This document shows, piece after piece, positions 40,896-64,000 of a stretch of DNA of 64,000 bases. The stretch lies in the sequence record MW630116.1. One strand, written 5' to 3'. The notes beneath the pieces were generated by a model. The model saw only the letters and a program-made list of their open reading frames with translations. It was not told the origin of the DNA and did not search any database. A program made the position numbers and the translations under genes. Within the stretch, counting starts at the first letter, position 1. Every line of letters begins with the position of its first letter. Source of the stretch: Escherichia phage vB_EcoM-ZQ3.

Positions 40896-40934
40896 TGTAC
40901 AAACGCCAAGGACGGTGTTACTATAGACCTATCA
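40895..40934 (+). promoter_or_regulatory. early promoter cassette (variant -35 TGTACA)
   Basis: TGTACA...TACTAT then conserved leader TAGACCTATCAACTACAGAGGAG. Confidence 0.4.
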
Positions 40935-51762: not shown

Positions 51763-52221
51763 ATGACTATCAATTCAGACGTTTTTATCCGCCGCAATAA
51801 ACTCCGTCGAATCTTTGAAACGGAGTTCCGCAAAATAAATGCCAGTATAAAAGATGCTGCAAAGTCTCTTGGACTACCAGGCTTTCATATCAAGTATTCT
51901 CAACATCTCTTAGATCGTGCCATCCAGAGAGAAATAGATGAGAACTACGTTTTTGAATTATTTCGTAAAGTAAAAAATCATGTTAAAGAAGTTGCAGAAT
52001 TTTTATCAATGCCGGCACGTCCGGATGTTGATGAAGATTTTGTCGAAGGCGTCGAATATCGCCCAGGCCGTTTAGAAATAACTGATGGAAATCTTTGGTT
52101 AGGACTTACAGTTTGTCGCGAAAATCCAGCATTCAAAATGAAGACTCTTCAATGCAGAATGGCTATTATTAACAGTAAACGACTACCAGGAAAAGCTTCT
52201 AAAGCAGTGATTAAAATCTAG
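51763..52221 (+). CDS. regB: RegB-like site-specific endoribonuclease
   Basis: 152 aa; N-terminus MTINSDVFIRRNKLRR and C-terminus RLPGKASKAVIK as recalled for T4 RegB; position between denV and tk. Confidence 0.6.
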   Translation: MTINSDVFIRRNKLRRIFETEFRKINASIKDAAKSLGLPGFHIKYSQHLLDRAIQREIDENYVFELFRKVKNHVKEVAEFLSMPARPDVDEDFVEGVEYRPGRLEITDGNLWLGLTVCRENPAFKMKTLQCRMAIINSKRLPGKASKAVIKI

Positions 52222-52229
52222 AGGTAAAC

Positions 52230-52772
52230 ATGAGAAAAGCACTACTCGCTGGTCTATTTGCTCTTTCATTATCAGCACATAGCTCCGAGCATACTTTTAG
52301 TAATGTCCAACTCGATAACTTGAATTATGCTTATCAGTTTGGGGAACAGTTTTCTAAGGACGGAAAATTTAAAACGCATGAAAATATGCATAAGAAAGGA
52401 CTTGGATACATAATGGCCGCAATACTATGGCAGGAATCATCTGCTGGTATTAATCTTAAAGATAAGAAAGGTCACCATGCGTATGGAATGTTCCAAAATT
52501 ATCTACCAACAATGAGGGCAAGAATTAACCAGCTTGGTTATAATATGTCTGATGCCCAAATTAAGAAAATGCTATCTAAGCGGTCTAATTCAGCCAGATG
52601 GGCTTATATCGAATTTTCTTATTGGTTAAATATACATAACGGGGATATAAGAAAAGCTATATCCTCATATAATGCGGGATGGAAGACAAGTGCTGGAAGT
52701 AAATATGCTTCTGAAGTCCTAGAAAAGGCTAATTACCTTAAATCAAATAAACTACTGGAAATAAAAGAATGA
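52230..52772 (+). CDS. secreted lytic transglycosylase-like protein (SLT domain)
   Basis: 180 aa; signal peptide; SLT motifs ILWQESS, YGMFQ, SYNAGW. Confidence 0.6.
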   Translation: MRKALLAGLFALSLSAHSSEHTFSNVQLDNLNYAYQFGEQFSKDGKFKTHENMHKKGLGYIMAAILWQESSAGINLKDKKGHHAYGMFQNYLPTMRARINQLGYNMSDAQIKKMLSKRSNSARWAYIEFSYWLNIHNGDIRKAISSYNAGWKTSAGSKYASEVLEKANYLKSNKLLEIKE

Positions 52773-53116
52773 CCAAAATGTTGGCTTTAATAGTTGGCTT
52801 GGTTTCATTTAACGCTCTTGCTAATACTACATATACTGATGTAACGGAGTATACAAACAGAACAGCGTCTGATTATTGTGGTAAAAGTCAAGAGTGTAAA
52901 GTAGATTTTTCACAAAAATTGTTATATGCGTATAAAGACGGAGAAAAAGATGGGGCGTCTAGTAGGTTCAAGGCGTCTACCTTAATTAAAAGATACTATA
53001 AAAAATGGCAAATATTAGAATGCTCGGTGGCGGAACCTAAAGATAAGGCAGCATGCAATTCTATGGTGGACCGTCTAGTTGACTCTTATACTAGAGGACT
53101 TGCAGCAAGTGATTAA
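52769..53116 (+). CDS. secreted protein
   Basis: 115 aa; signal peptide MTKMLALIVGLVSFNALA; four Cys. Confidence 0.5.
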   Translation: MTKMLALIVGLVSFNALANTTYTDVTEYTNRTASDYCGKSQECKVDFSQKLLYAYKDGEKDGASSRFKASTLIKRYYKKWQILECSVAEPKDKAACNSMVDRLVDSYTRGLAASD

Positions 53117-56935: not shown

Positions 56936-57409
56936 ATGATTATCAATGAAAACTCTTGGCACTTTAAAATTTATGCCGCGTTCAATAGTACATGGAATCG
57001 TCCGAAAACGTTGTGTGCTTATTTTTGGAAAACGTTAATCCCGGTATTGGCTGTTTCAATTATTGGATTTGCGATTTTAGCAGCAGTAACAATCATTGGC
57101 CAAGAAATTTTAACTAGATTCTTTGTTTTTAGCAGTCTATGGACATTAGTTCCGGCCTCAATTGGTGTAGGCATTTTAATGGTAGCAGTCATGGCTTTTA
57201 TTTCTGCCGGGTTGGTAATTGGTCCGTCTTGGTTGTTAGACAAATATAACGACAGAAAATATTATAAAGAAATTGAGCTCATTGCGCGAAACCAAGAACG
57301 AATTAAAAATGGACTTGAGCCTATTGAACGTAAGAAATCATTAATAGGTGAATACCTTAAAGCTCGTAAAGAAAAAATCTGTCCTACTCTTGAATATAAG
57401 GCTAAATAA
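56936..57409 (+). CDS. membrane protein
   Basis: 157 aa; three hydrophobic helices. Confidence 0.5.
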   Translation: MIINENSWHFKIYAAFNSTWNRPKTLCAYFWKTLIPVLAVSIIGFAILAAVTIIGQEILTRFFVFSSLWTLVPASIGVGILMVAVMAFISAGLVIGPSWLLDKYNDRKYYKEIELIARNQERIKNGLEPIERKKSLIGEYLKARKEKICPTLEYKAK

Positions 57410-58395
57410 TGAAAACGATTGTTAAGGCTTACTTTGGTAGCCACCTTTATGGAACGTCTACTCCTGAATCTGACGTCGATTTTAAAGAAATTTATGTCCC
57501 TCACGCTCGTGATATCTTGACCGGTAACGTTAAAGAACACATGAGCAAGAACACGAATAACACATCTTCTAAGAACACAAAAGACGACGTGGACCATGAG
57601 TTGTATAGTCTCAAATATTTCTTTAAACTAGCTGCAGATGGCGAAACCGTCGCATTAGATATGCTTCACACTCCACCAAGTTTAGTAGTTAAATCTGATT
57701 TGCCTGATGTATGGAAGTATATTCAAGATAACAGGTCTCGTTTCTATACCACTAACATGAAATCTTATTTAGGGTATGTCCGTAAGCAAGCTTCTAAATA
57801 CGGTGTCAAGGGTTCTCGACTGGCTGTTCTTCGTCAAGCCCTTAAACGTTCTAATGAATGGGGACAATACTTTGATAATGGTGCAGTAATTCGTTTATCA
57901 CATATGAAGAATGTTCTGCCTGTAGGTGAATTTGCTTCGTGGGTTGAAACCGAAAACGAGAAAACAGGTAAGCAAACATTCTATAATCTGTTAGACCGTA
58001 AATTCCAAGACACATTAACCAATAAAGAGTTCAATGCCATCCTGGTTAAACTAGAAGAGAACTATGGCGAACGTGCTCGTAAGGCAGAAGCTAACGAAGG
58101 TATTGACTGGAAAGCATTGAGTCATGCATGTCGTGGTGGACTTCAACTATTAGAAATTTATAAAACCGGCGACCTGGTTTACCCACTTCAGGATGCTCCA
58201 TTTATTCTCGATGTTAAGCTTGGTAAACATACGTTTAAAACTGTACAAGAATTCCTAGAAGATATCGTTGACCAAGTTGAACATGCGTCAGAACAAGCTG
58301 CCAAGAACGGTATGCAACAAAAAGTAGATATGAGTTTCTGGGATGATTTCCTTGAACAAGTCTATCTCGAAAATCATAATTCTTACTATAAATAA
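57409..58395 (+). CDS. predicted nucleotidyltransferase (Pol-beta superfamily)
   Basis: 328 aa; N-terminal motif YFGSHLYGTSTPESDVDF (hG[GS]x9-13Dh[DE]h). Confidence 0.6.
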   Translation: MKTIVKAYFGSHLYGTSTPESDVDFKEIYVPHARDILTGNVKEHMSKNTNNTSSKNTKDDVDHELYSLKYFFKLAADGETVALDMLHTPPSLVVKSDLPDVWKYIQDNRSRFYTTNMKSYLGYVRKQASKYGVKGSRLAVLRQALKRSNEWGQYFDNGAVIRLSHMKNVLPVGEFASWVETENEKTGKQTFYNLLDRKFQDTLTNKEFNAILVKLEENYGERARKAEANEGIDWKALSHACRGGLQLLEIYKTGDLVYPLQDAPFILDVKLGKHTFKTVQEFLEDIVDQVEHASEQAAKNGMQQKVDMSFWDDFLEQVYLENHNSYYK

Positions 58396-58783: not shown

Positions 58784-58809
58784 ACGAAATGAGTAAATTG
58801 GAGAATAAA

Positions 58810-59790
58810 ATGTTCAACGTTCAAATCAAAAAAGGTATCTATCGTAATAACGAAATCTCTGGTTCTTATGTCGCCACAAAGACATGGTTCCCGGCAAAGC
58901 TTAATCCTGAATGTTCCCACTTAGGTGATGGTAAAATTTTCGTTATGATTGATGGTTCTGAACGTGGAGTATGGGTCTTCAAATCAGACATCGTAATGGA
59001 AGGAGTTGAGACATCACCAGTTGCAGTTGTTGAAAGCACTGAAGATATGAAAACTCGTATCAACAAACGCTTTAAAGTAATGAACATGATGACGAATGGC
59101 ATTATCGATGGCAAAATTCGTTCACTCATTATTTCAGGTGCAGCTGGTATTGGTAAGACGTATTCTCTGGATAAAGCACTTAATAATGCTAATGATAATG
59201 GTTTCATCAAATACAAAAGCATTAATGGTAAAATCTCTGGTATTGGCCTTTACGAACAACTTTGGCTCAACCGTGATGCAGACAGCGTTCTCTTAATCGA
59301 CGACGTTGACGTATTCTCGGATATGGACATCTTGAACCTTCTTAAAGCAGCATTAGATACTGGAGATAAACGCAAAGTTTGCTGGAGCACTGCGTCATCT
59401 TATCTCGATGATAAGGGTATTGATAAAGAATTTGAGTTTGAAGGTACTATCGTTTTCATTACAAACGTTGATATCGATAAAGAGTTAGAACGCGGTTCGA
59501 AGCTTGCCCCACACCTTCAAGCTTTAGTATCTCGTTCAGTGTATCTCGACCTTGGAGTACACTCTAATGAAGAGATTATGGTTCGAGTTGAAGATGTAAT
59601 ATTATCTACTGACATGATGCAGAAACGTGGTCTGACAGATGCAGAAACGTATAAAGCATTGTCCTGGATGAAGGCCAACGTATCTCGTCTTCGCAATGTA
59701 TCATTACGTACGGCTCTTTATGTAGCAGATTTTATTTCAACTGATAAAGATGGTTGGGAAGAAATCTCTGAAGTAACTTTACTGAAATAA
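58810..59790 (+). CDS. P-loop ATPase (AAA-like)
   Basis: 326 aa from MFNVQIKKG; Walker A GAAGIGKT; Walker B VLLIDDVD. Confidence 0.6.
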   Translation: MFNVQIKKGIYRNNEISGSYVATKTWFPAKLNPECSHLGDGKIFVMIDGSERGVWVFKSDIVMEGVETSPVAVVESTEDMKTRINKRFKVMNMMTNGIIDGKIRSLIISGAAGIGKTYSLDKALNNANDNGFIKYKSINGKISGIGLYEQLWLNRDADSVLLIDDVDVFSDMDILNLLKAALDTGDKRKVCWSTASSYLDDKGIDKEFEFEGTIVFITNVDIDKELERGSKLAPHLQALVSRSVYLDLGVHSNEEIMVRVEDVILSTDMMQKRGLTDAETYKALSWMKANVSRLRNVSLRTALYVADFISTDKDGWEEISEVTLLK

Positions 59791-60274: not shown

Positions 60275-60715
60275 ATGAACGCTAAAGATATTTTCAACCT
60301 GGTAAATTATAACGACGGTAAATTTAAATCTGAAGCACAAAGCAAGTTCTTTAATGACGTTGCTTATGGTAACGAGATTACCGTAGACGGAGGTCAGATT
60401 TTCAAATCTCGCTGGAATTGGATTGTTATCATCGATTCAGTTGGAATTGTGGAAGTCTACAAAAACACTAACAAAAAACGTACATTATTCTGGTCTCGTG
60501 AAACTAACGAGCAGTACAAAAAGGATAAAGCATCTCGTTTATCCAAAGTAACCCAGGAAGATATCGAGTTTATCAAGAAAGATATCGAGATGTACGAAAA
60601 TTTAATCGCTGAAGACCAGGCAGTACTCGATAAGTTTGATGAAATTAAAGCTTCTCGTGAAATCCCTGACTTCATGAAAGAAACAGTAAATGAACGATAC
60701 GCTCTCACTTCATAA
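60275..60715 (+). CDS. hypothetical protein
   Basis: 146 aa; GGAGG RBS. Confidence 0.55.
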   Translation: MNAKDIFNLVNYNDGKFKSEAQSKFFNDVAYGNEITVDGGQIFKSRWNWIVIIDSVGIVEVYKNTNKKRTLFWSRETNEQYKKDKASRLSKVTQEDIEFIKKDIEMYENLIAEDQAVLDKFDEIKASREIPDFMKETVNERYALTS

Positions 60716-60864
60716 CGTATTGCAAACTATACAAAACAGAAATCAGAACGTATTAGTACTCTTCGGAAATTTGAAGAACGTTTAAAGACGGTTCACGCAT
60801 AAACGCTTTACCCAAGGACGGGTTATAATGGTTTTGAGTTCCAATTCAATCTGAGGAAATAGTT

Positions 60865-61860
60865 ATGAGCATTACATCTGATGCGGTAAAACATGAAATT
60901 AACGGTTTATGTGCTTCACAGATTAAAGTGTGGTTTAAAGACCATAATGATCGCAGAGCACTTAATTATGAGCAAATTGCTATCCAAGTTCATCAATTAC
61001 TGACTAGTAAATTTGATTTTCATATGCCGTCTGAAATCTATACTAATCTACCGCGAGCGCTTATTAAAGCGTGTAAAGGTTACGGAAAATCAATGGCCGA
61101 TGGAATCTTCAGCGCGCTGAATAAACTTAACGTTCTGTCGATGATTAACTCTAACAACATCCTGCGTAATCTAGGACGTACTGATTTGTTCGGTCGGGAA
61201 CAGTGTAAAATGCCTTTGAAATGGATTGTTGCTCATCTTAACGAGAACCAAACACGTTTTATGGCCGTATCAGCACGCTTACAAATGGGCCTAGATCGTC
61301 AGATGAACTTTAAAACTCATCCACGTTATTCAGGTTCAACTGTCTTTTATAAATGTGAGCTTCAAAAGGTCGGTGGCAAAACTGTCTTAGTAGTTCGTGT
61401 AACGTTTGAAGGACGACGTCAAGGATATTTTGACCTAATCGGCTCTGGTCTTAAACATTGTGGATTTATTGACGAAGTTGATATCAAGCGAGACGGCATT
61501 GGATACCGTATTGGATATGTTTGTACTCTTAAAGAAGAGATTTCAGGACCAGCACCAGGACTAAAAGACGTTAGATATAAAGACGAGCTCGTTGAAGAAA
61601 TAAAAGAAGTTGAATATGATATCAACCAAGAAGATGCTCTTAAAGACCTTATTGATGAACTGAACCAAGACGTTATTCCGGTTCAGAAATTTGAATCAAA
61701 ACATGCTGAGCAAATCAAATACTTTGAAGCTTTGATTAACGAACTTAATGTAACTATTCAACAGACTGACGATGAAATCTCACGATTAGCAGGCTTAAAC
61801 GGTAAAAATAAAACAGAACGAGCTAATCTTATTCAGGTAGTAAAACTTCTTAAGGAATGA
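60865..61860 (+). CDS. hypothetical protein with C-terminal coiled coil
   Basis: 331 aa; RBS GAGGAA; heptad-rich C-terminal 60 aa. Confidence 0.55.
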   Translation: MSITSDAVKHEINGLCASQIKVWFKDHNDRRALNYEQIAIQVHQLLTSKFDFHMPSEIYTNLPRALIKACKGYGKSMADGIFSALNKLNVLSMINSNNILRNLGRTDLFGREQCKMPLKWIVAHLNENQTRFMAVSARLQMGLDRQMNFKTHPRYSGSTVFYKCELQKVGGKTVLVVRVTFEGRRQGYFDLIGSGLKHCGFIDEVDIKRDGIGYRIGYVCTLKEEISGPAPGLKDVRYKDELVEEIKEVEYDINQEDALKDLIDELNQDVIPVQKFESKHAEQIKYFEALINELNVTIQQTDDEISRLAGLNGKNKTERANLIQVVKLLKE

Positions 61861-61895
61861 TGTACAACCAAGGATGGTTGGAGTATAATAAATTT
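61861..61895 (+). promoter_or_regulatory. early promoter cassette (TGTACA -35, TATAAT -10)
   Basis: shares 27 identical nt TACAACCAAGGATGGTTGGAGTATAAT with cassette at 62853. Confidence 0.5.
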
Positions 61896-61915
61896 TTCAA
61901 CATGAGGAATATAAA

Positions 61916-62848
61916 ATGGCTTTTATTACACGTAGAGAACTTATCAAAGAATTTACCTCGAACGCATATACTCCAGGACCTAATCCTATCCGTATGCCTG
62001 TAAAGACTCCTGAAGAGATTGAGGAAATCTGTTCATATTATGGGATTACTTCTCGTAAGTTTACTCAATTTGAATGCGTTACTAACACACCCGTTAAAGA
62101 GTTCATTAAAAATGGCGAGTTCAGCCGTTTATTAGCCAAACAGAAACTTCGTAATTTTTGTATTGGCGGTGAAGGACAATATTTCGCTAAGCAGTTCCGG
62201 AATAACCTTAACAATCTGATGGCCATTGCTTCTCGTATTCGTCCTCAAGCAATTAACATGAAACATTTGAAATATACTTACGATAAGTTGGAAATCATGG
62301 TTATCAGTGAGAATGAGTTCACTCTTACGTATAAACCTAAGAATGATAACGTTGCTCGTGTATTCCACCAAGCGTTGGAAGTGTTAGGTGATAATATTCA
62401 CCAGATTAAAGCAATTTATTCTCGTGAGCTTAATATTATCGACCCTATCAAGAATAAGGGCCATATCGCTATCCAGGCTCGTGTATCTATTGGTAAAAAG
62501 GTTCCTGCACCATGGTGGCACAAAGACTCTGAATACTATCAAAATCTTAAAAAGGAAAATGCAACGTTCGAAGCGTCAATTATTGTCGCCCCGACTATCG
62601 GTAAGATTAATTCAGCTTCAGCACAACCTGTTATGTTTAACGGCACACCGTCGACTAAACTGGAAATCTCTAACGGTCTTCTTCCTGCCGAAGATTACTA
62701 TTATAATCAAATCAAAGCCACTGCGGACCAACTGTCTGATGAACTTGACAAAGCACAAGCTAAGCTTCGTGATGCTCAACAAGTAGTTACCAAGCTCCAG
62801 TTGCAGTACTCTAAACTTTTTAACGCAATGAATGCATTAAAATCATAA
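61916..62848 (+). CDS. hypothetical protein with C-terminal coiled coil
   Basis: 310 aa; C-terminal LSDELDKAQAKLRDAQQVVTKLQLQYSKL. Confidence 0.55.
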   Translation: MAFITRRELIKEFTSNAYTPGPNPIRMPVKTPEEIEEICSYYGITSRKFTQFECVTNTPVKEFIKNGEFSRLLAKQKLRNFCIGGEGQYFAKQFRNNLNNLMAIASRIRPQAINMKHLKYTYDKLEIMVISENEFTLTYKPKNDNVARVFHQALEVLGDNIHQIKAIYSRELNIIDPIKNKGHIAIQARVSIGKKVPAPWWHKDSEYYQNLKKENATFEASIIVAPTIGKINSASAQPVMFNGTPSTKLEISNGLLPAEDYYYNQIKATADQLSDELDKAQAKLRDAQQVVTKLQLQYSKLFNAMNALKS

Positions 62849-62852
62849 ATCA

Positions 62853-62890
62853 GTTTACAACCAAGGATGGTTGGAGTATAATGAATCTAT
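62853..62890 (+). promoter_or_regulatory. early promoter cassette (GTTTAC -35, TATAAT -10)
   Basis: near-identical to cassette at 61861. Confidence 0.5.
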
Positions 62891-62910
62891 CTTAACGAGA
62901 GGAAAATATT

Positions 62911-63861
62911 ATGACACGTTCACATTATGTTGATTATTTTGCAGGTCTTATCGCTAACGTTCATGCCCAACGTGCTTCTGGTTCATTAGGATTTGATGTT
63001 CCACACCGAGTTGTAGTAAGTGGTATTCTTCGCGATTTTGGTACATACACAGGCCAAGAAAATCATATCTGTAAAGATACTCAGAATGCGTATTCTCATT
63101 CATTAGGGACACTGCTTCAATGGTTCAAACGTTCTCGTTTATTATCTTCTACTGTAGCTCGCGATAACATTAAAAACTTTATGAAGCCGAGCTTTATTAA
63201 ATCTGTGACATCTAAAACCGATTTGGTTGAATTTACTATTATTAACGATGTTAAAAAGACTCATTTGGCTGATTGGTTATCTACCATTCCTGAAACTAAA
63301 TTTGCTGATAAATTTGCTTGTGAATTCAATAACCAAGTGAATATGCTTTTTAAACATTCACGTAAATTATTCACAGGCGGCGACGGTCGTACAAATAAAG
63401 TTCATGTTAAAGATTGGGTTACTGCAGTATTCAAACCAACTGGTAATTGTAACGCATCATTGTCAATTGATATCCAGGTTCCTTATTACTACTCACGTAA
63501 TCTCGGTACCATGAAAGCTGAAGAAATTAATAAGCATAACAAAACCGTTCGTTCGTTGTCTTATAAACTTATTACATTGTTAGAGACTATGGATGTTGTT
63601 GAAACGTTCGACGAATCCGAAGATAACGGTTCAATGTTATACAGTTCTCGTACCCGAATTAAGCTGAAGAACCCTAATATGTATAAACCTAAGCTTATTA
63701 AAGAACCTAAAGCAGAAAAGGTTGATATCATGGCTGAAGAACGTGAATACCTCAAATCTCGTCTGAAAGAAGTCGAAGCCCAGATTGCAGAACAAACTAA
63801 ATCGTTAAAAGCTCTGAATGCGAAAGCGGACGGTTTACGAAATGCCATTGAGGTTTTATAA
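62911..63861 (+). CDS. hypothetical protein with C-terminal coiled coil
   Basis: 316 aa; C-terminal EEREYLKSRLKEVEAQIAEQTKSLKALNAKADGL. Confidence 0.55.
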   Translation: MTRSHYVDYFAGLIANVHAQRASGSLGFDVPHRVVVSGILRDFGTYTGQENHICKDTQNAYSHSLGTLLQWFKRSRLLSSTVARDNIKNFMKPSFIKSVTSKTDLVEFTIINDVKKTHLADWLSTIPETKFADKFACEFNNQVNMLFKHSRKLFTGGDGRTNKVHVKDWVTAVFKPTGNCNASLSIDIQVPYYYSRNLGTMKAEEINKHNKTVRSLSYKLITLLETMDVVETFDESEDNGSMLYSSRTRIKLKNPNMYKPKLIKEPKAEKVDIMAEEREYLKSRLKEVEAQIAEQTKSLKALNAKADGLRNAIEVL

Positions 63862-64000
63862 TGAAACTACGTCTTTTAGAGGATATTGATATGAGCACTA
63901 ATCACGGCTTGGTTAAGTTTATTGACGATAGTTCAAAGATTGAATTTGTTCAGCGAGATAAAATCCACGGTGAAGAAGAGTTCGTTCCTCCGGCATGGAA
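63861..64000 (+). CDS. hypothetical protein, 5' partial (runs off window end)
   Basis: ATG overlapping upstream stop (ATAATG); open to window end. Confidence 0.4.
   Translation, partial: MKLRLLEDIDMSTNHGLVKFIDDSSKIEFVQRDKIHGEEEFVPPAW

Follow-up and report, generated by a model that had tools for sequence, protein, structure and literature searches.

The closest described relatives of the genes treated here lie in the nrdC region of phage T4. A large deletion covering this region restricts the host range of T4, and nrdC.5 provided from a plasmid restores infection by an evolved T4 deletion mutant on cells carrying Dsr1, a sirtuin-type defence of E. coli ECOR17 (Srikant, Guegler and Laub 2022, PMC9391042). 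A functional analogue of the role proposed for nrdC.5 is the anti-DSR2 protein DSAD1 of SPbeta-like phages, which neutralises a SIR2-type NADase defence (PMC10973363) but differs from the nrdC.5 family in phage group, size and architecture. Promoter-early stem-loop (PeSL) elements, too, cluster in hyperplastic parts of T4-type genomes. Through PeSLs, the single genes lying next to them are inserted, deleted or replaced, and their promoter and terminator activity, as well as mini-circle formation, have been addressed experimentally (Arbiol et al. 2010, PMC2839356); their consensus in T4/PST-like phages is TTTACW-N17-TAYWAT (Comeau et al. 2014, PMC4122927). Here, we describe a locus of Escherichia phage vB_EcoM-ZQ3 (record MW630116.1; "the window" is the whole stretch of 64,000 nucleotides that was analysed) in which three consecutive genes of the nrdC group, referred to as A (60865-61860), B (61916-62848) and C (62911-63861), are separated by cassettes of the PeSL type.

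Judged by homology and synteny, the locus is the stretch from nrdC.6 via nrdC.5 to nrdC.3 within the variable tk-nrdC region of a T-even phage of the RB69-like (Mosigvirus) type; DNA identity to Mosigvirus genomes (e.g. phi25-307, PHB12 and mogra) is 96-97%. These are already catalogued accessory genes, present in hundreds of database genomes, and not a new system. The three open reading frames (ORFs; 331, 310 and 316 amino acids, all on the + strand) had been delineated in a preliminary description made from the DNA letters, and their coordinates proved exact. Sequence comparison and gene order show A, B and C to be the orthologues of T4 nrdC.6, nrdC.5 and nrdC.3, respectively. Compared with the annotated T4 genome, the order nrdC.8 -.6 -.5 - (.4) -.3 -.2 is retained, with nrdC.4 and nrdC.7 missing from the window phage.

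Gene A belongs to the T4 nrdC.6 family (PHROG 2257, expect value [E] 1e-126; precomputed Pfam PF26899) and occupies the position between nrdC.8 and nrdC.5 that is expected of nrdC.6. It is 29% identical to T4 nrdC.6 (BLASTP, E 1e-18), and its residues 27-330 are 32% identical to the 295-amino acid form of nrdC.6 found in most Tequatrovirus (E about 1e-31). Gene B (PHROG 2351) matches the Pfam family DUF7235, i.e. the nrdC.5 family, over practically its full length (residues 15-309 against profile positions 1-307; 374 bits with a cut-off of 30, E 8e-112). It lies on the Mosigvirus branch of that family and is 23-28% identical to T4 NrdC.5 (23% by BLASTP, E 5e-11), and its homologue in RB69 carries the name NrdC.5. 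With T4 NrdC.5, for which the Dsr1 activity was reported, B shares the genomic position, the layout of head, linker and tail, and the motif SKLxNAxNAL at the end of the tail; it differs in its branch and low identity, and in being known here from sequence. Gene C (PHROG 1435) is homologous to T4 nrdC.3 over the full length (57% identity, BLASTP E 7e-115) and is located immediately upstream of the nrdC.2 homologue, which begins at 63861; its product matches a vB_EcoM-ZQ3 protein with 100% identity. Matches to all three families were confined to enterobacterial T-even phages when 50,697 phage records were searched by tblastn, and a search for related loci returned the same T-even lineages only.

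Nothing in the available families assigns a biochemical activity to the three proteins. Their PHROG families are all of unknown function, and homology search, which would have spoken against the preliminary description by assigning the genes to unrelated known enzymes, matched A, B or C to no enzyme family (Pfam, Protein Data Bank [PDB] and PADLOC searches). Sequence and profile searches of the PDB gave nothing significant for any of them, and PADLOC returned no defence or anti-defence match, only a single coiled-coil match at chance level. The label "thioredoxin", under which relatives are deposited in GenBank, was considered as an identity and rejected: A, B and C have no thioredoxin match in Pfam at E ≤0.1, and CxxC is absent from all three sequences. 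The label was wrongly carried over from the gene symbol nrdC.x; it runs over the unrelated genes nrdC.11 to nrdC.1 in GenBank relatives (e.g. mogra, PHB12 and AV112).

The globular heads of A, B and C had been thought to be unrelated to each other, which did not hold for two of the three. By profile comparison, B, C and T4 nrdC.4 are divergent paralogues. The nrdC.4 and nrdC.3 profiles align with 98.7% probability (hhalign, E 3e-15), and still with 97.4% (E 9e-12) when the heads alone are compared; the nrdC.4 hidden Markov model also detects C directly (HMMER, E 1.4e-10). The nrdC.5 profile, to which an exhaustive HMMER search had contributed three divergent members, aligns with the merged nrdC.3+nrdC.4 profile with 94-97% probability (hhalign, E 1.5e-7 in local and 6.6e-11 in global mode). 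That exhaustive search with the nrdC.5 profile retrieved 15 proteins and no other family, and a mixed profile of the four families, run against a set of 5.8 billion proteins, retrieved almost exclusively nrdC.5 members. In the joint alignment of the families, shared motifs are spread along the whole length: an N-terminal M(K)TRxxYIxxF, an FKxxxxLSxxxAxxxLxNF motif, a long helix with ..LxxAxRL.., an MDVVE helix, and the tail end LxxA[LI]xxLK.

Only A is without a secure sequence link to the others. When the nrdC.6 profile was aligned with the merged nrdC.3/4/5 profile, the local hhalign score was 28.8, compared with 12.0 ± 1.9 for column shuffles (maximum 18.1; the score was reached in 0 of 78), i.e. 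∼9 standard deviations above the shuffles, yet the nominal E was 0.004 and the probability 9%. The shuffle control in global mode behaved erratically and was disregarded. In structure models of A and B generated with AlphaFold2 (AF2; both of low confidence, and computed as monomers for these two proteins), the secondary-structure elements follow in the same order. This evidence is only suggestive; probably, A belongs to the superfamily that comprises B and C as a more remote member. The relationship of nrdC.3, nrdC.4 and nrdC.5 is firm at the level of profiles, that of nrdC.6 tentative. Recognition of nrdC.3/4/5, and perhaps nrdC.6, as one family of head-linker-coiled-coil proteins is modestly new, as databases list them as separate families.

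The three proteins show a common architecture: a head of ∼220-260 residues, a variable linker, and a C-terminal amphipathic heptad helix of 45-55 residues. The tail of A (61696-61857, + strand; residues 278-331) consists of a heptad segment (278-310), a break at GLNG, and a terminal helix ending LIQVVKLLKE. That of B (62684-62845, + strand; residues 257-310) is a single long amphipathic helix in unbroken heptad register ending KLFNAMNALKS, and that of C (63703-63858, + strand; residues 265-316) is a heptad-rich segment ending GLRNAIEVL. Heptad periodicity was scored with a crude measure of our own, which is neither COILS nor MARCOIL and which was calibrated on ORFs of the window and on shuffled sequences. 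Among the 45 ORFs of at least 100 amino acids on the + strand, C ranked first, B second and A fourth. The B and C tails keep one register over ∼50 residues, with scores reached in 0 of 200 shuffles; in A, the register is continuous over 33 residues (278-310) and the score was reached in 1 of 200. The AF2 model of B contains the tail as one helix of 53 residues (257-309; predicted local distance difference test [pLDDT] 74-85), that of A four shorter helices (pLDDT about 50-57). In the PDB, the tail part of the family profile drew weak matches, none of them significant and nearly all of them to coiled coils or long helical bundles (Lpp, gp41, FosW, myosin, APC). Thus, the heptad-rich coiled-coil tails that the preliminary description had seen in all three proteins are well borne out in B and C, and in A they are weaker and broken into segments.

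Within this architecture, A runs from a helical N-terminal part through a beta-alpha-beta region and an acidic linker insertion (residues 233-270) into the helical tail. The insertion (KDVRYKDELVEEIKEVEYDINQEDALKDLIDELNQDV, 61561-61674; ∼38 residues, acidic, partly helical) is missing from Tequatrovirus and Dhakavirus nrdC.6 and distinguishes A from its T4 orthologue. The reference T4 nrdC.6 itself (record 52066-52893, 275 amino acids) diverges past residue 259 and has no coiled-coil tail, whereas T4T and most Tequatrovirus (295-296 amino acids) have one. T4 DNA downstream of nrdC.6 still codes for the tail out of frame, which indicates a frameshift in the reference strain. When the low-confidence model of A was compared with BFVD by Foldseek, its own orthologues were found and otherwise weak matches to uncharacterised proteins of 300-346 amino acids from Enterobacter phage IME523, Serratia phage CBH8 and Acinetobacter phage Acj61 (E 3e-5 to 3e-3). 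Possibly, these proteins of other T4-like genera are distant relatives of A; the first 50 kilobases (kb) of Acj61 gave no HMMER match.

Each of the genes B and C is preceded by a cassette that fits the published PeSL class in its sequence, i.e. a stem-loop set between the -35 and -10 elements of a predicted early promoter of the sigma-70 type. Cassette 1 (61861-61889, + strand) has the -35 element TGTACA, a spacer of 17 nucleotides and the -10 element TATAAT; the hairpin CAACCA-AGGA-TGGTTG (6-bp stem, 4-nucleotide loop) lies in the spacer at 61865-80, and a Shine-Dalgarno sequence, GAGGAA, follows at 61904-61909. Cassette 2 (62854-62882, + strand) has TTTACA, again a 17-nucleotide spacer and TATAAT, the same hairpin at 62858-73, and a purine-rich Shine-Dalgarno-like sequence, GAGAGGAA, at 62897-62904. 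Cassette 2 fits the T4/PST consensus exactly and is the best sigma-70-like match between 56 and 64 kb (11/12), whereas cassette 1 deviates at -35. The identity of 27 nucleotides already pointed out between the two cassettes (TACAACCAAGGATGGTTGGAGTATAAT) is exact (61863-61889 and 62856-62882), and the 29-nucleotide cassette occurs at these two sites only in the window, with 0 occurrences expected from shuffles. All three genes have a GAGGAA-type ribosome-binding site upstream. In front of A, there is a degenerate cassette (60804-60832, + strand) composed of TTTACC, the hairpin ACCC-AAGGAC-GGGT and TATAAT, which is conserved in mogra and ESCO47, occurs in a related form in JS98, and folds weakly (-4.9 kcal/mol, z -0.3). 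As only 11 nucleotides separate its hexamers, it is unlikely to work as a standard sigma-70 promoter.

Like PeSLs described before (PMC2839356, PMC4122927), the cassettes are intergenic, combine an early promoter with a stem-loop, and occur on either side of individual accessory genes within a hyperplastic region; moreover, one chimeric cassette is found where a gene is missing (ESCO47, see below). They differ in that the stem-loop is short and weak and carries an invariant AAGGAY loop, compared with the G/C-tract stems of RB49, and the window copies are known from their sequence. The hairpin was analysed in 12 cassettes, comprising those of this region in T4, RB5, JS98, ESCO47 and others, and a fourth copy in the window (40896-40930). 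The loop AAGGA(T/C) was invariant and the stem varied by compensatory substitutions: 93% of the cells were paired, and the covariation score was 0.78, compared with 0.19 in shuffles (reached in 0 of 500) and far lower values in slid controls. Four of the five stem pairs covaried, with a selection bias being possible because the set was picked as intergenic cassettes. The covarying AAGGAY hairpin is modestly new. A role as a classic terminator is unlikely, since the hairpin is not stable enough for this and no U tract is present. The loop resembles a Shine-Dalgarno sequence, and several copies have GGAG after the stem.

Comparison with the equivalent loci of relatives, which had been proposed as a check, revealed gain and loss of single genes between cassettes. 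ESCO47 has the orthologues of A and C and a B-sized gap in between, filled by a single chimeric cassette, the left end of which is cassette 1 and the right end cassette 2. CJY920 is without nrdC.4, Pinarejo is without nrdC.6 except for a remnant of the tail, and in ACG-C40 only fragments of nrdC.5 and nrdC.3 are left. Gain and loss of genes mediated by cassettes can be seen here in a clean natural case. Records per family differed in the tblastn search, with 741 for nrdC.6, 653 for nrdC.3, 554 for nrdC.4, and, for nrdC.5, 531 with a T4-type and 144 with a B-type query (small overlap).

Exchange is also evident within genes. DNA identity of A to its ESCO47 counterpart is 68% in the head and 91% in the tail, a jump that points to a recombination breakpoint at the head/tail junction. 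Salmonella phage Manna contains a natural in-frame fusion of an nrdC.6 head to an nrdC.4 tail, joined at a ..DEI.. motif that both share; in a second natural chimera, a fragment of nrdC.5 passes into the C-terminal half of nrdC.3 at FNxxVN, and in a third, a protein of 173 amino acids, an unrelated N-terminus of 118 residues precedes an nrdC.5 tail. One of the chimera-bearing proteins comes from a metagenome. The suggestion that the genes are exchangeable modules has, therefore, stood up well: they have cassettes of their own, whole genes come and go in relatives, A carries a breakpoint, fusions occur naturally, and an effector-like role is on record for NrdC.5 (PMC9391042). ESCO47 is mosaic also beyond A; relative to 60275-61860 of the window, it is strongly diverged (68% DNA identity) in the second half of nrdC.8 and in the head of A, and ∼90% identical in the tail of A and the genes downstream.

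The reading that we consider the probable one is that A, B and C form a tandem array of early accessory genes, encoding diverging counter-defence or host-takeover proteins with oligomerising tails and kept exchangeable by PeSL cassettes. Host RNA polymerase would transcribe each gene from its own cassette right after infection, and the cassettes, together with the conserved gene ends, would supply the homology for recombinational exchange. The products would be non-enzymatic factors acting in counter-defence or host takeover, each head may bind a different host target, by analogy to T4 NrdC.5 and the NADase defence Dsr1, and the coiled-coil tail would turn each protein into a homo-oligomer. 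Several points weigh against this. B is only 23-28% identical to T4 NrdC.5 and its counter-defence role is assigned by analogy, while no published work on the mechanism of NrdC.5 was found in the literature searched. Oligomerisation driven by the tails is something that we infer. HMMER searches of profiles against sequences gave no link of A to B or C (E 0.17-3.6). The cassette hairpin folds weakly (-6.9 kcal/mol, z about -2), and no U tract follows it. Finally, the AF2 models of the heads of B and A are unreliable, with mean pLDDT values of 41 and 51 (alignments of 43 sequences in two clades and of 5 sequences, respectively) and values below 50-60 in the heads. Fold assignment from these heads was abandoned, the pLDDT being too low to judge the fold, the absence of an active site, or the link of A to B and C.

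A more far-reaching version is possible, although we would put it forward as tentative and somewhat doubtful. According to it, nrdC.3, nrdC.4, nrdC.5 and nrdC.6 would constitute one hitherto unrecognised superfamily of modular counter-defence proteins in enterobacterial T-even phages, in which the conserved coiled-coil tail may serve oligomerisation or docking, the fast-diverging heads may each be directed against a different immune system of the host, and new specificities may arise via tandem duplication, head swaps at the junction, and PeSL-mediated exchange.

Alternatively, the proteins could have nothing to do with defence and be early host-takeover or housekeeping factors acting, for example, on the nucleoid, transcription, translation or the membrane of the host, with the coiled coil being merely structural. 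Host processes are the targets of many early genes of T4. The lack of any defence or anti-defence match in PADLOC and of any match to a solved structure would be in line with this, as would the fact that a counter-defence phenotype is on record for one distant relative only. We nevertheless regard it as unlikely: B and the anti-Dsr1 protein share a Pfam family, the families are restricted to enterobacterial T-even phages, patchy in distribution and fast-diverging in their heads, as is typical for arms-race genes, and the genes are located in a region whose loss narrows the host range (PMC9391042).

Rather improbable, in our view, is that the three tails are a common adaptor, which either assembles the heads into a hetero-oligomer or docks them on a single shared partner of the phage or the host, as the preliminary description had supposed. 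The tails of A, B, C and nrdC.4 do resemble each other in their terminal pattern, L-x-x-A-[LI]-x-x-L-K, those of nrdC.6 and nrdC.5 both begin P-V...H-A-x-x-I, and the Manna fusion sets the head of one family on the tail of another. Constraint, too, is stronger on the tails than on the heads. Between A and its Tequatrovirus and Dhakavirus orthologues, the tail is 58-60% and the head 27-32% identical, and between C and T4 nrdC.3, the figures are 72% and 56%. In the latter pair, the proportion of non-synonymous differences per non-synonymous site (pN) amounts to 0.29 for the head and 0.19 for the tail, and synonymous sites approach saturation in either part. However, tail-only profile comparisons between the families were not significant (hhalign, E 0.003-0.13), so that the tails are family-specific and the assumption of one common tail had to be dropped. 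Furthermore, the genes go missing individually: B in ESCO47, nrdC.6 in Pinarejo, nrdC.5/4/3 in ACG-C40, nrdC.4 in the window, and the tail of nrdC.6 in T4. Such losses in natural phages are evidence against an obligate hetero-trimer, which is, therefore, not supported, and the differing record counts of the families point in the same direction. T4 nrdC.5 alone, moreover, restored growth on Dsr1 cells in trans (PMC9391042).

That the conservation of the tails merely reflects DNA-level homogenisation of 3' ends beside recombinogenic cassettes, without meaning for the protein, is very improbable and was rejected as a sole explanation on synonymous-site saturation. It would agree with A against ESCO47, where the proportion of synonymous differences per synonymous site (pS) is 0.35 in the tail (91% DNA identity) and 0.69 in the head and the recombination tract ends at the junction, whereas in the distant comparisons (Tequatrovirus, Dhakavirus) the tails are as saturated as the heads (pS 0.72-0.85) and their non-synonymous divergence is lower (0.19-0.29, compared with 0.29-0.51 in the heads), which argues that the constraint acts on the protein.

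The surroundings of the three genes conform to the T4 arrangement. The ORFs upstream of A are homologues of nrdC.11, nrdC.10, nrdC.9 and nrdC.8. The nrdC.11 homologue (57409-58395) matches the Pfam family RlaP, an RNA-repair-associated nucleotidyltransferase (E 8e-13), and the nrdC.10 homologue (58789-59790) resembles an NTPase of the AAA/STAND type; both neighbours are uncharacterised and might likewise bear on host defence. The nrdC.8 homologue (60275-60802) contains TAA at 60713-60715, where mogra, two relatives from IMG/VR and ESCO47 have GAA or GGA, and its reading frame continues for 29 further codons, to 60802. This early stop is either a nonsense mutation (146 instead of 175 amino acids) or a sequencing error. 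A further early promoter-like site, TTTACG-N17-TATAAT (63834-63862, + strand), extends over the end of C and lies ahead of the nrdC.2 homologue. In the whole window, the pattern TTTAC-N18-TAYWAT has ten matches (2438, 34629, 35780, 41182, 43103, 45283, 48578, 49080, 62854 and 63834), all on the + strand, compared with 0.5 expected; they fit T4-type early promoters and a single direction of transcription across the window.

Genes of the nrdC group are found in hundreds of sequenced T-even phages, including candidates for therapy, and almost all copies are annotated as "hypothetical" or, wrongly, as "thioredoxin". The common architecture of nrdC.3, nrdC.4 and nrdC.5, and perhaps nrdC.6, one member of which defeats Dsr1, turns them into concrete candidates for determinants of host range.

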